From: Oceanicoccus sp.
GTDB lineage: Bacteria > Patescibacteriota > Gracilibacteria > UBA1369 > 2-02-FULL-48-14
Reading direction: 5' to 3'
Assembly (NCBI GenBank): GCA_047635955.1
Contig: JBLIGW010000003.1
Span: 1 to 35,696, forward strand
Length of the DNA stretch: 35,696 nucleotides
The translations under genes and the position numbers were made by a program. Under the pieces are notes generated by a model that was not told the DNA's origin, did not search any database, and saw only the letters and a program-made list of their open reading frames with translations. This document shows positions 31,098 through 35,696 of this stretch, one piece after another. Every line of letters begins with the position of its first letter. Position 1 is the first letter of the stretch.

Positions 31098-31172
31098 TCC
31101 CCTGTAGCTCAGTGGTAGAGCAATTGACTGTTAATCAATGGGTCATTGGTTCGAATCCAATCGGGGGAGCCA
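31098..31172 (+). tRNA. tRNA-Asn (GTT)
   Basis: Acceptor TCCCCTG/CGGGGGA, D-arm GCTC/GAGC, anticodon stem ATTGA-CT GTT AA-TCAAT, T-loop GGTTCGAATCC, encoded CCA. Confidence 0.98.
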
Positions 31173-31269: not shown

Positions 31270-32493
31270 ATGAATCTTAAAACACTACTACTAGCTGGAG
31301 TAATAGCGTGCAACAGTCCTCAACCGACTGACGCACCTTTATCAGAACAAATTGAAGTCCCACAAGCAGCTCCACTTTCCTTTACACTTGGAGGTGTCAC
31401 TTTTGATATGGGCACAGAATCTGGAATGAATTCCGACCAAAGAAAAGAATTGATTGAAAAAGCAACTTCTGCCTACGAAAAGCTTCTCGAGCATTTTGGC
31501 ACTGAGCTAATGAGCTCACTTTACGTAAAGACAGTCAAAGTGCAAAAAGTCGAATCTAACTCTTTCAAAGCAAGAATCAACCCTCAACCCTGTAATTACA
31601 AACTTGAATTTGTAAATGAGCAATTAGTGCTTTCTATTCCTGACTCAGAACAACAAGAGCTAAAAACTTCAACTTCAAACACTTTATATGTAAACATTCT
31701 TGAAGAGGAAACTCTGCTCCATGAATTCATACATCTTTTTTTACAAGGAGGAGAAATGACCTCATTTGCATTCATGGAAGGACTAGCTCATGGCTTAACC
31801 TACCACCTCTACCCTGATAGTCATGAAGTACATGGTGAAGTAGTGGAAAGCCTTCAAAAACATCAAAACGCATGTATTAATGATGCATTCAAAAATGGGT
31901 GGGACACAAATGAATTAGACTCACAAGTATTTGAGGGCGGTGTTCAAGGTGGAATGGCATCAAGATTTTTAAGACCCTATTGGGGCTACAAATGGGCTGA
32001 ATTCTTTGAACAACACCCTAAGTTCATCACAGCCTTTTTCCGTAAACTCAGAGAAAAACGCGAACAGGGAACTATAGCCTTCACAAAAGAGCAGATCATT
32101 GAAATAGCAAGCGACGTTGAACCAGAATTTCAAGAGTGGATGTCAAACGAAGGAAGTTCTATTCAAGATCTTGAAACTCAAGAACGTGTCTTCGCAACAA
32201 AAATGGGAGAAAATATTTGGTTATTTAACTTTTCTACCACAGCAGCACAATCTGTTCTTGATGCTCAACCTCCTTGGAAAGGTGGACACATAAGTACTGC
32301 AGGGGTCTTGCAAATTCACAACAATGTAAACGGAAATGATGGCTATATCACAGGCAACCCAAGCTTTGGCTCATTAAATATGTCAGAAGATCCAGGACCA
32401 ACAACTTATGAAGTCAGAATTGGAAGAGATGGATCGATAACAAGCGTACCTTTCATGCTTGATGTAGATGGAAAATGCATGGAGCTTAATTAA
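31270..32493 (+). CDS. Lipoprotein with gluzincin-type metallopeptidase motif (cassette 1)
   Basis: Lipobox VIAC; LLHEFIH followed by downstream FMEGLA. Confidence 0.7.
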   Translation: MNLKTLLLAGVIACNSPQPTDAPLSEQIEVPQAAPLSFTLGGVTFDMGTESGMNSDQRKELIEKATSAYEKLLEHFGTELMSSLYVKTVKVQKVESNSFKARINPQPCNYKLEFVNEQLVLSIPDSEQQELKTSTSNTLYVNILEEETLLHEFIHLFLQGGEMTSFAFMEGLAHGLTYHLYPDSHEVHGEVVESLQKHQNACINDAFKNGWDTNELDSQVFEGGVQGGMASRFLRPYWGYKWAEFFEQHPKFITAFFRKLREKREQGTIAFTKEQIIEIASDVEPEFQEWMSNEGSSIQDLETQERVFATKMGENIWLFNFSTTAAQSVLDAQPPWKGGHISTAGVLQIHNNVNGNDGYITGNPSFGSLNMSEDPGPTTYEVRIGRDGSITSVPFMLDVDGKCMELN

Positions 32494-32526
32494 AACAGTT
32501 ATAATTGCGTCCAACTTGGGGAGCCA
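32493..32526 (+). repeat. att-like junction 2
   Basis: AAACAGTT-N17-GGGGAGCCA directly after the stop codon of cassette 1. Confidence 0.75.
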
Positions 32527-32660: not shown

Positions 32661-32756
32661 TTGGTTCGTATCTATCCTGGGGAGCCATACTTTTTTACAG
32701 GTTAAAAACACCCCCAAAACCGCCTACCCCTAACTGGAATGCGAAACTTTTTGCTA
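32661..32756 (+). repeat. att-like junction 3: degenerate tRNA 3' copy plus 78-bp conserved extension
   Basis: 32661-32687 matches tRNA 31146-31172 at 22/27; 32679-32756 is homologous to 35290-35371. Confidence 0.85.
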
Positions 32757-33380
32757 TTCAACTAAAATCACCTCACCATCCCTCAAAGGTTTGTAAGGGA
32801 TATTATTCTCTACACAATATTGGATTTCCTTATCAATATCTGCAGATTCAGGATGATCAGAATCATAATGTGGCAAGAAGGCATAATCAATTATGCCCAA
32901 ACCGTCCCATATGGTTTCAACACAATCTGTATATGGAAAATCATTCGGTTCATCCACAATATCCAATCCCTTCAACGAAGGTGAAAGAATACAAGCTCCA
33001 GCACTAAAAGCTCCATACACAAAATCATCTCTTTCACTTAAATCTTGAATAAGTTCGTCAAAACCAGACAGATACATAGCCTGCCGAAGCACAAAAGTAT
33101 TACCTCCACTTACCCAGAGCATATCCAGTTGATCTAGTTTTTCCTTTAATTCTGCTTTTTTACCAAAGTATTCTTTAAAATCTAGTAATTCTGGAGTGAA
33201 TCCTAAGCCCTTAAGACCTTCAAAAGCCAAGTCTCTATGGAATTTAACTTTCTCTGGATCAGCAAATGTAAAATCTAATGCATTCGGAACATAACCCACA
33301 CGTTTTTTTGTCTGTGCAAGCCATCGTTGTAGCGTTTCAGTTTCGTTCCCTAGTTTATAAGAAGATAAATAAAGCTTCAT
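32754..33380 (-). CDS. Peptidase E (S51) / class I glutamine amidotransferase-like protein (cassette 3)
   Basis: VSGGNTFVL, YGAFSAGA nucleophile, GLG...PHY. Confidence 0.88.
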   Translation of the reverse strand: MKLYLSSYKLGNETETLQRWLAQTKKRVGYVPNALDFTFADPEKVKFHRDLAFEGLKGLGFTPELLDFKEYFGKKAELKEKLDQLDMLWVSGGNTFVLRQAMYLSGFDELIQDLSERDDFVYGAFSAGACILSPSLKGLDIVDEPNDFPYTDCVETIWDGLGIIDYAFLPHYDSDHPESADIDKEIQYCVENNIPYKPLRDGEVILVE

Positions 33381-33423
33381 AGTTGAATAAAAGGTTGATA
33401 CTCAAATTCTACCATCTCCTCAC

Positions 33424-33459
33424 AAACAGTTCGAACTTCGTCCAGTATGGGGAGACCCA
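33424..33459 (+). repeat. att-like junction 4
   Basis: 33424-33454 matches 35265-35295 at 29/31; core variant GGGGAGACCCA. Confidence 0.85.
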
Positions 33460-33602
33460 TTCACGTTTGAAGTGCACCACCTAAGGATAGAGGCTAGGCA
33501 GCATGAAAACACACATATATATATTATGTTAAAGCAGAGCGGCTGGAACTCTACAACTTAACGGGCATTGACAAGTGCAAATTAATATGTTTTTATATCT
33601 AC

Positions 33603-34259
33603 ATGAGACACCAAATTTTAAGATCAAATGCTCAATTTAATGATGAGACAGACTTAATCAACTTAGTTGAAGAGGAAGGTTTTCAGGAATGGCTACTGAT
33701 AAAAGCAACAAACGATGGCTTAACTCTTTATAATAGAGAGGCTAATGATCAGCCATTTGATTGGTCGGAGACAGACCAGCAAATAAAAGTAAGCGTTCAA
33801 CAGTTTTGTTCAACAGTACATACATGGATCATTGAAGCATTTAATGAAATTTTTCAAAGTAAGCCTGAGTACCGAAGTTTAGAATTAGACCACTTTGACG
33901 TGAACTTTCTCCCATATATTGATGCATCTGACCACGAACCTGCTCCCTACACCTTTGACCACTGGCATAGAGATTCGTACAAGGAAGGAGTGTTTATGCA
34001 TTTCACCATTGGCACAAGCCAGTGTTTTACAGAAGTGATACCAGTAAATGTACAAGCAAATGAAGCTGAAGAAGTTGACGGTGAATGGTTGTTCCACGAA
34101 AGAATCAATAGTCAGGTTTCAAATGGGCAATTAGAAAAGCAGGAAGTCCCACATGGTTATGCCATTGCACTTACAATGAAGGATGTCGAAATGATCCATA
34201 GAAGAGGGGCAATACAAACAAACGGGTCAAGAATTGCAGTTAGAGTTTATTTTAAGTAA
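33603..34259 (+). CDS. Putative 2OG-Fe(II) oxygenase-like protein (cassette 4)
   Basis: WHRD (HxD), distal IHRR and terminal R in SRIAVRVYF fit a DSBH facial triad; family not certain. Confidence 0.55.
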   Translation: MRHQILRSNAQFNDETDLINLVEEEGFQEWLLIKATNDGLTLYNREANDQPFDWSETDQQIKVSVQQFCSTVHTWIIEAFNEIFQSKPEYRSLELDHFDVNFLPYIDASDHEPAPYTFDHWHRDSYKEGVFMHFTIGTSQCFTEVIPVNVQANEAEEVDGEWLFHERINSQVSNGQLEKQEVPHGYAIALTMKDVEMIHRRGAIQTNGSRIAVRVYFK

Positions 34260-34407
34260 AATGAACTTCATGCACATTGTGCACTTCCCCAAAACAGAGG
34301 GTTAGGTTGAGAGGCAAAATTGCTCACTTTCAAAGTTATAAGAAACTATGTAATGATAAGGATATGATTCCTATCACCTAGATCAAAGCTTTCAAACAAC
34401 ATTCTGT

Positions 34408-34438: not shown

Positions 34439-34509
34439 CCAAGCTTAAAAGAAAATGAATTTAAAAAAATCTGAGATCCCCCCTCTTAAGCGAGTTGAAA
34501 ACCTCACGT

Positions 34510-34556
34510 AGTTCGGAAAAGAAACAGAGTGGGGAGCCAGTATTATCTTCAGGTTA
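34510..34556 (+). repeat. att-like junction 5
   Basis: AGTTCG...(AGTT-N17)-GGGGAGCCA-N10-CAGGTTA. Confidence 0.8.
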
Positions 34557-34608: not shown

Positions 34609-35262
34609 ATGGCAATAGAAAACACACAAACCGAATGGGAAGAAAGCCTACATCGTAGTCAATCTACGCTGGATTCAGTTGACCCTGAGCAATTGCACGA
34701 AGGACCAGCTTTTGAAGCTCAAACCAAGCAAGGTGAAAAGCTCAACGTTACTACCCGATTCTACTACTTTAAAGGAATGGATTTTTCTCCGAGCGATACA
34801 CTAAAAAATGGCTTACGCCTTTACATGTTTGCTAGAGATGAAACAGGCCAAATCGTAGGAACAAGAGTCGCATCTATCTTTCAACTTAATCCAAAGACAC
34901 TTGAATGCAAAAGTAAAATTATCGTTAGAGACAAAGGTCAGGGCTTAGCATCCCCCATTGAAGAAACTTTCATCCAAACATTGCAGCACATTGCAAATAC
35001 AGAAAATAAACGCGTCATTTGGAAGGTCGAAAACCAAAATCTTGAAAAACTAGAAGCATATCGAGCTCAAGACTCAAACGATCCACTAAAGTTAGCTGGA
35101 ATGGAGGCTGAGCAAGAACGATGGCAATACTTATATGGAGAAAATGGTAAATTTGGCATCTCAAGAAATCGAAGGATCTTTATGCCAACAAAAAACGTAG
35201 ATACACCAATAAGTGACTCTCAGACAGGTATCCACGAAAAAGTAGAATCAGCAATGAGCTAG
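34609..35262 (+). CDS. Hypothetical protein, possibly GNAT-like fold (cassette 5)
   Basis: 217-aa ORF with its own promoter; KGQGLAS resembles the acetyl-CoA-binding motif A. Confidence 0.6.
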   Translation: MAIENTQTEWEESLHRSQSTLDSVDPEQLHEGPAFEAQTKQGEKLNVTTRFYYFKGMDFSPSDTLKNGLRLYMFARDETGQIVGTRVASIFQLNPKTLECKSKIIVRDKGQGLASPIEETFIQTLQHIANTENKRVIWKVENQNLEKLEAYRAQDSNDPLKLAGMEAEQERWQYLYGENGKFGISRNRRIFMPTKNVDTPISDSQTGIHEKVESAMS

Positions 35263-35264
35263 CA

Positions 35265-35371
35265 AAATAGTTCGAACTTCGTCTAGTATGGGGAGCCAAC
35301 TTCTTTTTCAGCTTACAGATACCTCCAAAACCGCCTACCCCCCCCTAACTGGAATGCAAACCTTTTTGCTA
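35265..35371 (+). repeat. att-like junction 6 with conserved extension
   Basis: Left arm nearly identical to junction 4; first 27 nt from the core match the tRNA end and downstream flank at 26/27; extension homologous to junction 3. Confidence 0.9.
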
Positions 35372-35374
35372 TGT

Positions 35375-35695
35375 TTAAGCTTTTGTCCATTTCATAATAT
35401 ACTCCTCACCCTCTCCTGTATCTTTGAGTTGTTTCACAAGAATTTCAAAGCCACACTTCTTATATACCGATCGAGCTGCAAGATTCTCCTCATCAACCGT
35501 GAGATAAACTTCACTATGCCCTTCTTGCTCCAAGTACTGAAGCATCAATTGAATGGCCTCCGTTCCATGCCCTTTCCCCCACTCACCCCTTTCACCAATA
35601 GCTAAACCAAGAAAGGTGTTTCCTGCATAATCATCTTCCCTTTTAGCATTAAAGTGAATACCACAGTTTCCAATCAATTTATCTCCTTCCACCTT
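35375..35695 (-). CDS. GNAT N-acetyltransferase (RimJ/RimL-like), 5'-partial (cassette 6)
   Basis: LIGNCGI, WGKGHGTEA, N.AARSVYKKCGF; frame open to the window edge. Confidence 0.9.
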   Translation of the reverse strand, partial: KVEGDKLIGNCGIHFNAKREDDYAGNTFLGLAIGERGEWGKGHGTEAIQLMLQYLEQEGHSEVYLTVDEENLAARSVYKKCGFEILVKQLKDTGEGEEYIMKWTKA

Positions 35696-35696
35696 A

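Follow-up and report, generated by a model that had tools for sequence, protein, structure and literature searches.

Junction arms behind a Gracilibacteria tRNA-Asn gene as probable attP-type half-sites that overlap the tails of large serine recombinases

Why should the joints between small gene cassettes downstream of a tRNA gene encode, over and over, the same short peptide? The stretch of DNA analysed here (the window, 35,696 nucleotides) is the entire contig C3 of a Gracilibacteria assembly of 895 kb in 76 contigs that is 84% complete. Its plus strand carries a tRNA-Asn(GTT) gene with an encoded CCA end (31098..31172), followed by an array of cassettes and junctions, and the majority of the junction left arms read WLP-x-[LF]-[DE]-x-[VI]-R-T on the minus strand. 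We consider it highly probable (about 0.85) that these left arms represent P-type (attP-type) half-sites for large serine recombinases (LSRs) whose target is the 3' end of tRNA-Asn, and that the attP of an intact element extends over the final 15-30 codons of its LSR gene.

The array is confined to one island. The final nine bases of the tRNA, the core GGGGAGCCA at 31164-31172, reappear at 32518, 32679, 34531 and 35290, with an altered form, GGGGAGACCCA, at 33447. Twelve exact copies of GGGGAGCCA exist in the assembly, and nine of the 12 lie in a single orientation on three island contigs, more than a chance recurrence. A junction profile, built partly from this genome's own junctions, gives 14 matches at E<=0.001, all on contigs C3, C57 and C5 and none elsewhere among the assembly's contigs; the array downstream of tRNA-Asn comprises at least 14 junctions over three contigs. 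C3 and C57 share sequence at their ends, and C57 holds six further junctions (read in reverse); in turn, the first 165 nt of C5 match the end of C57 but for a single mismatch, and C5 adds two more degenerate junctions. Because synteny with the same-genus genome G001 restarts at about 15.9 kb of C5, the array spans C57 and the first ~16 kb of C5, and the island is therefore roughly 27 kb long, provided that the contigs are joined correctly, out of a genome of about 1 Mb. Other genomes of the family have the same arms next to tRNA-Asn, and one additional metagenome contig carries them too. The cargo is mostly one gene per cassette, in both orientations, and includes peptidase E, GNATs, Nudix, DUF4336, a PEP-utilising enzyme, a ParE pair, FTR1 and YibE/F.

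The spacing of one box separates the arms from the tRNA end. In a set of 71 sites beside tRNA-Asn, drawn from 20 genomes of the family, 17 have GTTC[GT][AG]A with its start 15 nt ahead of the core, 26 have it 20 nt ahead, and three have it 19 or 21 nt ahead; the 17 sites with 15-nt spacing are all tRNA-Asn genes, and the 26 with 20-nt spacing are junction arms. The offset is also visible at the protein level: in a worldwide set made up of the best 150 of 12,057 LSR representatives, W-x4-..SN is found in 35 and W-x6-[VIL]R[TNK] in 19, which corresponds to a 5-nt shift of TTCGAAC. In the Listeria integrase (LI integrase) work of Rutherford et al. (2013), a 9-bp zinc-ribbon-domain (ZD) motif occupies positions 16-24 of the attP half-site and is moved 5 bp centreward in attB (PMC3783163). 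With the centre placed at the GA of GGG-GA-GCCA, the arm sequence AGTTCGAAC falls on positions 16-24 and the tRNA T-loop, GGTTCGAAT, on positions 11-19, so that the distal motif lies 5 bp closer to the centre in the attB-type site, the tRNA, as in the rule given there (PMC3783163). Together, the left arm of junction j4 and the right arm of junction j3 form the palindrome AGTATGGG-GA-GCCATACT, which indicates the same GA centre. The tRNA has a TCCA box at positions 8-11, and so do the P arms and, in the relatives G013, G184 and G002, the LSR-side arms; near-centre symmetry is clear in some junctions, as in this palindrome and in TCCA..TGGA with the LSR-side arms.

Each part of the peptide can be matched to a part of such a site. 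WLP (TGG CTC CCC) is the CCA end and acceptor strand, that is, the putative crossover core; L-[DE] represents the TGGA/TCCA box at positions 8-11, a candidate contact of the recombinase domain; and [VI]-R-T, which is GTTCGAAC-like at positions 16-24, mimics the T-loop 5 bp further out than the T-loop of the tRNA itself and may serve as the ZD motif.

Relatives carry recombinases at this tRNA. In both G013 and G184, an LSR of 500-535 aa runs antisense to tRNA-Asn and ends ...WLPRLDSNQ within the tRNA. The G013 protein (L018:12468-14075, 535 aa) contains Resolvase, Recombinase and Zn_ribbon_recom domains (Pfam) and ends ...EEAIPNWLPRLDSNQRPSD, with its stop, within tRNA-Asn. Its N-terminal catalytic domain matches PF00239 (E 8.5e-17), and S10, R8, R54, R80 and R83 are invariant among 28 aligned LSR members; PF07508 and PF13408 are matched as well, and the four cysteines C284, C287, C314 and C323 are invariant in the same 28. 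In structure searches by sequence, the nearest solved structures match the catalytic domain only. At the first downstream junction of G013, 9 kb off, the type-1 arm keeps the LSR frame as WLPILEEVRTICEEMVESDYEAPTRYALH and a stop (WLPILEEVRTICEEMVE..., WLPILEEVRT...); in the first 42 nt after the core, it has four differences from the j4 arm of the window. G184 has a layout like that of G013, its junction 7.2 kb off reading WLPLLDKFRT..., and in G002 a third LSR runs into tRNA-Asn. The layouts of G013 and G184, with the frame continued at the first junction, bear out the proposal of the first-pass annotation that attP lies within the 3' end of a recombinase gene whose C-terminus is swapped on integration.

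We propose that the free element would encode ...W-L-P-x-[LF]-[DE]-x-[VI]-R-T followed by a tail and a stop. Crossover would take place at the GA of GGG-GA-GCCA, whereupon the LSR gene would read into the tRNA and end ...WLPRLDSNQ(RPSD), and the old tail would stay at the far end of the element as the junction left arm. Both the GA dinucleotide as crossover point and recombination at these sites are inferred. The tail of the recombinase would change at each entry into, and each exit from, the tRNA gene. The arms in the window are orphan P arms, with no recombinase upstream.

Recombinases that end in tRNA genes are widespread in the order, where a match to this LSR at E<=1e-10 is found in 99 of 205 genomes. 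We examined 70 loci, 30 of them as listed and 40 picked from matches that had E below about 1e-30 and extended to the C-terminal region of the query; matches that were weaker or truncated were excluded. An open reading frame (ORF) of at least 250 aa is present at 69 of the 70, and 59 of these 69 end antisense within a tRNA; the isotypes hit number 12 (Gly 18, Ser 14, Gln 9, Asn 5 and eight others). Two of the remaining loci, where the ORF does not end in a tRNA, end WSSLINDVRTGVITI and WLAFYTEVRTHFKASGG, each before a stop. In the worldwide set, the strict motif W-x6-[VIL]R[TNK] lies within the last 70 residues of 20 representatives, compared with a mean of 0.48 and a maximum of 3 for shuffled tails and with none of 916 windows from the protein bodies; of these 20, at least P0018 has a tail of the tRNA type and matches by chance. 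The looser pattern [DENQ]x?[VIL]RT is found in 34 of the 150 where 2.0 are expected, and tRNA-antisense tails in 75. The statement that serine recombinases of the candidate phyla radiation (CPR) beside tRNAs carry such tails holds, by the 59 of 69 loci and by the 20 of 150 representatives with the strict motif; the absence of this tail from recombinases, which had been named as a refutation, is not what is seen. Eight representatives end in -AA (P0031, P0066, P0080, P0087, P0089, P0093, P0126 and P0138), six of them among the 40 with attP-type tails; these endings recall, as a hint, C-terminal degradation tags.

Several observations weigh against this account of the arms. A search of the genome's own 84%-complete assembly with P0001 revealed no close LSR, the only matches being an LSR on C24 with 27% identity and, on C54, an 84-aa remnant of a C-terminus. 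We found no protein in which the exact tail WLPIL[DE]EVRT is joined to an LSR body: the C-terminal search (residues 440-535 of P0001) returned P0001 and P0002 only, which are singletons by cluster look-up, and a metagenome pattern scan returned three stretches, the G013 contig and arrays without an LSR reading through. At the DNA level, the distal, T-loop-like motif is present in inverted form (ATCCGAACT) in the right arm of only 2 of the 71 sites; most right arms (N10-CAGRTTAMAA) have no dyad partner, and the sites are less symmetric than model LSR sites. The assignment of domains to boxes is by analogy to the LI integrase. Junction j3 (32661..32687, plus strand; TTGGTTCGTATCTATCCT and core, reading WLPRIDTNQS) has the tRNA-type (B-type, 15-nt) spacing, which differs from the spacing of the other arms; it is a second attB-like site inside the array, and simple LSR integration does not yield one. 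Finally, canonical LSR rules forbid integration into attL, and tandem arrays are therefore unexplained by the textbook reaction.

The two matches in the genome's own assembly lie near other tRNAs. The distant LSR on C24 (G000:C24:3867-5138, L022; 492 aa) ends 92 nt from tRNA-Pro with a ..FTLRTF.. tail, and the remnant of an LSR C-terminus on C54 (G000:C54:6452-6676, L023) is next to tRNA-Ser.

The first-pass annotation had treated the conserved peptide and a conserved DNA motif as alternatives. That choice is a false one: each conserved residue maps to a DNA element of the half-site, in keeping with the DNA side, and the frame is also a real ORF end, in keeping with the peptide side. The arms could nevertheless be conserved only as recombinase-binding DNA, with the tail translated in intact elements and itself free of selection. 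This idea can call on the mapping of all conserved residues to core, TCCA box and T-loop mimic; on 30 distinct P-type arms, in all of which Arg is encoded by xGA and Val/Ile by a codon with T or C in third position; on the complete divergence of tail sequence and length past codon ~10-16; and on the replacement of the tail by unrelated residues on integration, hence not being essential for all reactions. We nonetheless think it unlikely. The type-3 arms of G023 and G020, which are alike over ~95 nt only and have different cargo on both sides, differ at six positions in 27 codons, and all six differences are third-position synonymous, although this pair was noticed after the fact. Codon-position bias, which had been named as a sign of coding, is indeed present: at codons 5 and 6, which were not used in arm selection, the second position is invariant or nearly so and the third is variable. 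The distant LSRs L028 and L036 keep V-R-T as GTT CGG ACT, breaking the T-loop mimic at a universally conserved T, and Arg is specified by CGA, AGA and CGG. The ending ...SQCA closes type-3 tails in five of eight distinct arms from three genera, but it overlaps a DNA palindrome. Counts of synonymous and non-synonymous changes within arm types are circular for codons 4-10, the types being defined by the peptide, and are not relied on. Both DNA-level and coding constraint act on the arms; for selection on the peptide, there are signs only.

The peptide readings that had drawn attention to these arms are all present in the sequence (j2, WLPKLDAIITVL; j5, WLPTLFLFRTT-stop; j6, WLPILDEVRTIL; tRNA, WLPRLDSNQ-stop), as are the CTG/CTA and GTT/ATT differences between j4 and j6. 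At j4 (33412..33457, plus strand), a type-1 P arm (CTCACAAACAGTTCGAACTTCGTCCAGTAT) is followed by the mutated core GGGGAGACCCA, and a minus-strand ORF at 33460..33377 (ATG GGT CTC CCC ... CTA TGA) is intact and encodes the 27 aa MGLPILDEVRTVCEEMVEFEYQPFIQL. Its TGA (33379-33377) overlaps the ATG (33380-33378) of a cargo gene for a 208-aa, peptidase E-like Peptidase_S51 protein (32754..33380, minus strand). The special status given to this mini-ORF is not supported: the j4 core carries a 2-nt insertion relative to the other copies, the insertion creates the ATG, no other arm has such a start, and no Shine-Dalgarno sequence lies at a usable distance. The 2-nt insertion probably killed the j4 site.

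A functional leader peptide, translationally coupled to peptidase E through the ATGA overlap, would explain the intact ORF and the shared stop and start. It is also consistent with a 799-nt contig from sample X4 (covering 32693-33454), in which just one of 33 differences falls in the tail region and is synonymous, and with a same-strand ORF of at least 80 aa that begins within 100 nt of the tail stop in 13 of 32 P arms, the intact G013 element included. We judge it very unlikely nonetheless, as the ATG is solely a product of the core insertion, the other arms have no start there, the closest AGGTGG is ~19-24 nt upstream of the ATG, and a simple scan shows no promoter-like site nearby. The scan, which covered promoters and terminators, gave nothing at j4, and promoter-like sites were fewer than in shuffles. 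The stop/start overlap is better explained as a relic of an LSR-to-cargo operon across attP; given the same-strand genes near the tail stop in 13 of 32 arms, the data suggest a single operon in the free element that spans attP and joins the recombinase to the first cargo gene. The 27-codon ORF LPILDEVRTVCEEMVEFEYQPFIQL (33377..33460, minus strand), an LSR-tail remnant behind the new ATG, is thus part of an orphan P arm with a damaged core, and nothing found supports a function of its own.

Tandem integration at a tRNA, partial tRNA copies and degenerate remnants are also known from tycheposons, 910 of 937 of which have tyrosine recombinases (bioRxiv 10.1101/2020.12.28.424599), and the arms might be ordinary partial-tRNA direct repeats of such tyrosine-integrase elements. 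We regard this as extremely unlikely. The arms are not tRNA copies: beyond 9 nt the match to the tRNA is lost, and 26 arms have the T-loop-like box shifted by 5 nt. Elements bordered by one full and one partial copy of the target tRNA, as in tycheposons, are not seen here, where tRNA identity is the 9-nt core and j3 alone is tRNA-spaced. The recombinases found at tRNA-Asn in relatives are LSRs (no search aimed at tyrosine recombinases was made).

The reading of the arms as LSR half-sites finds its partial parallels in several systems. Like the att sites of Listeria innocua/A118-type LSRs, the sites here go with a three-domain LSR, are short with a putative central dinucleotide and, in some junctions, partial dyad symmetry, and show a distal ~9-bp motif at 16-24 in attP and 11-19 in attB, offset by 5 bp; unlike them, they target a tRNA 3' end, have the T-loop as distal motif, place attP within the last codons of the recombinase, have right half-sites that are mostly not symmetric partners and occur in tandem arrays (PMC3783163). 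Prochlorococcus tycheposons share the tRNA-proximal hotspot, the successive integrations that push older material outward, the degenerate remnants and the niche-adaptive cargo, and a minority of them have LSRs; they differ in having partial tRNA copies as repeats and mostly tyrosine-type recombinases, the host here being of a Gracilibacteria-labelled CPR lineage, and the accessible part of that account makes no mention of an overlap between att site and recombinase tail (bioRxiv 10.1101/2020.12.28.424599). In the integration-dependent immunity of BPs-type mycobacteriophages, attP likewise lies in coding sequence, and free and integrated genomes express different C-termini; there, the gene encodes a repressor, the integrase is of the tyrosine type, and the tail that is lost serves as a proteolysis tag, its role in the lysis/lysogeny switch having been demonstrated (PMC3694055). 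The gene whose tail changes here is that of the recombinase itself. Archaeal integrases of the SSV1 type also have attP within the integrase gene and a tRNA target, and their tyrosine integrase gene is split in two on integration; in contrast, only the extreme tail is exchanged here and the gene remains whole. Integrons likewise line up cassettes, mostly of one gene, at a single anchor, with a recombination site bounding each of them, and they have the tyrosine recombinase IntI, attI and attC hairpins, whereas the junction sites here are tRNA-end mimics that are not attC-like, the cassettes lie in both orientations and the anchor is a tRNA. In the literature that we covered on serine recombinases, tRNAs, att sites, CPR and tycheposons (mostly excluding subscription papers), we found no LSR with attP in its own tail and no T-loop mimicry. 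The nearest known concepts are tycheposons and integration-dependent immunity.

How the cassettes arose is a separate matter. It had been suggested that they are reduced descendants of autonomous elements; such decay is possible but unsupported, as the island holds no LSR remnant and the right arms are a conserved non-LSR module. The cassettes might instead be small recombinase-less units with their own attP-like site (P arm, core and CAGRTTA-type right arm) that are moved in trans by an LSR, an analogue of integron arrays. They are 0.6-2.7 kb long, mostly with a single intact gene tightly flanked by the arms; four cassettes whose cargo is unrelated have type-1 arms without a single difference over ~30 nt; the right arms are shared between genera and do not code for an LSR (their open frames have 0-33 codons, '..ICKTKW'); the search with P0001 found no LSR remnant in the island; and G013 and G184 each show an LSR-bearing element followed by small LSR-less cassettes. 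Moreover, the peptidase cassette recurs in another study's marsh sample (33 differences over 762 nt), where a different, j2-like arm adjoins it exactly at the core. However, no circular cassette was seen; the contigs are short Logan contigs; joints that 'go back' are explained by the repeated arms and are uninformative on circles; canonical attP x attB directionality would not permit movement in trans unless more is assumed; and the conservation of the arms could instead reflect recent common descent or gene conversion. On balance, we hold movement in trans to be possible, at somewhat less than even odds.

The right arms have features of their own. A long conserved right arm (..TTTTTTACAGGTTA..CCAAAACCGCCTACCCCTAACTGGAATGCGAAACTTTTTGCTAT) occupies 32688..32757 on the plus strand and is also found at j6 and on C57/C5; its second copy in the window lies at 35299..35372 (plus strand; repeat families D4 and D7). 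This ~70-nt module (..CAGGTTA..CCAAAAYCGCCTACCCCTAACTGGAATGCGAAACTTTGCTAT(ACT)) is present at five junctions, among them 32688-32757 and 35299-35372 of the window, L001 (C57) and L002:25-90. If the next gene lies on the plus strand, its ATG follows ~10-35 nt past TATACT, and the module may be a cassette promoter. In G009 and G010, there is a related version with a CATCCA..TGGATG hairpin. Read in the tail frame, CAGRTTA-type right arms have, immediately ahead of WLP, a recurrent ..[IL][IT]CK[TK][KV]-W that lies in short open frames (8-33 codons); this ending is on none of the best 150 LSR representatives.

The remaining features of the window follow the tRNA in order on the plus strand. The cargo of cassette 1 is a 407-aa ORF without a Pfam family (31270..32493). 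Junction j2 (32495..32526) consists of a degenerate type-2 P arm (GTTATAA for GTTCTAA) and the core at 32518. Beyond j3, the peptidase gene and j4, a 218-aa cargo ORF without a Pfam family (33603..34259) is followed by a coreless remnant of a type-3 arm end (34262..34300; FWGSAQCA and a stop on the minus strand; palindrome TGCACA-A-TGTGCA), and in contigs from other samples this stretch runs on into a full type-3 arm and core. Junction j5 (34508..34539) has a P-type arm, with GTTCGGA 20 nt before the core at 34531, and precedes a 217-aa cargo ORF without a Pfam family (34609..35262). Junction j6 (35265..35298) has a type-1 P arm and the core at 35290, its minus strand reading WLPILDEVRTILLAHC and a stop; after the second right-arm copy, a GNAT acetyltransferase gene on the minus strand (35375..35696) is cut by the contig end and continues on C57. 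One cassette of C57 (L001:2442-5048) encodes an 868-aa PPDK_N and PEP-utilisers protein, and its neighbour a ParE toxin with a small upstream partner. An Rfam search of the window showed, beyond the tRNA, just one sub-threshold match.

Code 25, in which TGA is a sense codon, is known from some Gracilibacteria. For this genome it was ruled out: ORFs of at least 150 aa under table 11 cover 85% of the genome and TGA ends 123 of 706, and the standard genetic code is used. Two other loci stood out among the relatives. In G005 (C16:15647-16228) and G022 (C35:7472-8087), tRNA-Asn matches as two halves (1-37 and 35-75) ~500 nt apart, which suggests an insertion or intron in the anticodon loop. In L096 (G020), two sites at a distance of 1.45 kb (9662 and 11111, both with core CGGGAGCCA) share the same 42 nt as left flank, which looks like a local duplication unrelated to P arms.

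What these arms mean can be stated at several levels. The repeated 'peptide' is accounted for as two overlapping codes, a recombinase half-site and the recombinase's own C-terminus. The analysis brings to light a large and mostly uncultivated clade of serine recombinases that appear to target the 3' ends of tRNAs with the T-loop as distal recognition motif, and their natural attP/attB pairs, in which the sole systematic difference is the 5-bp shift of one box, offer a clean natural test of the directionality model for serine integrases. More tentatively, bacteria of this CPR order may have an integron-like system built on a serine recombinase, in which the tRNA 3' end is the anchor and single-gene cassettes with P arms, each arm a fossil or mimic of the tail of the recombinase, are shuffled in trans; the swap of the tail would be a possible built-in switch of recombinase stability or direction. 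These findings point to a main route of gene gain in the very small genomes of CPR bacteria.

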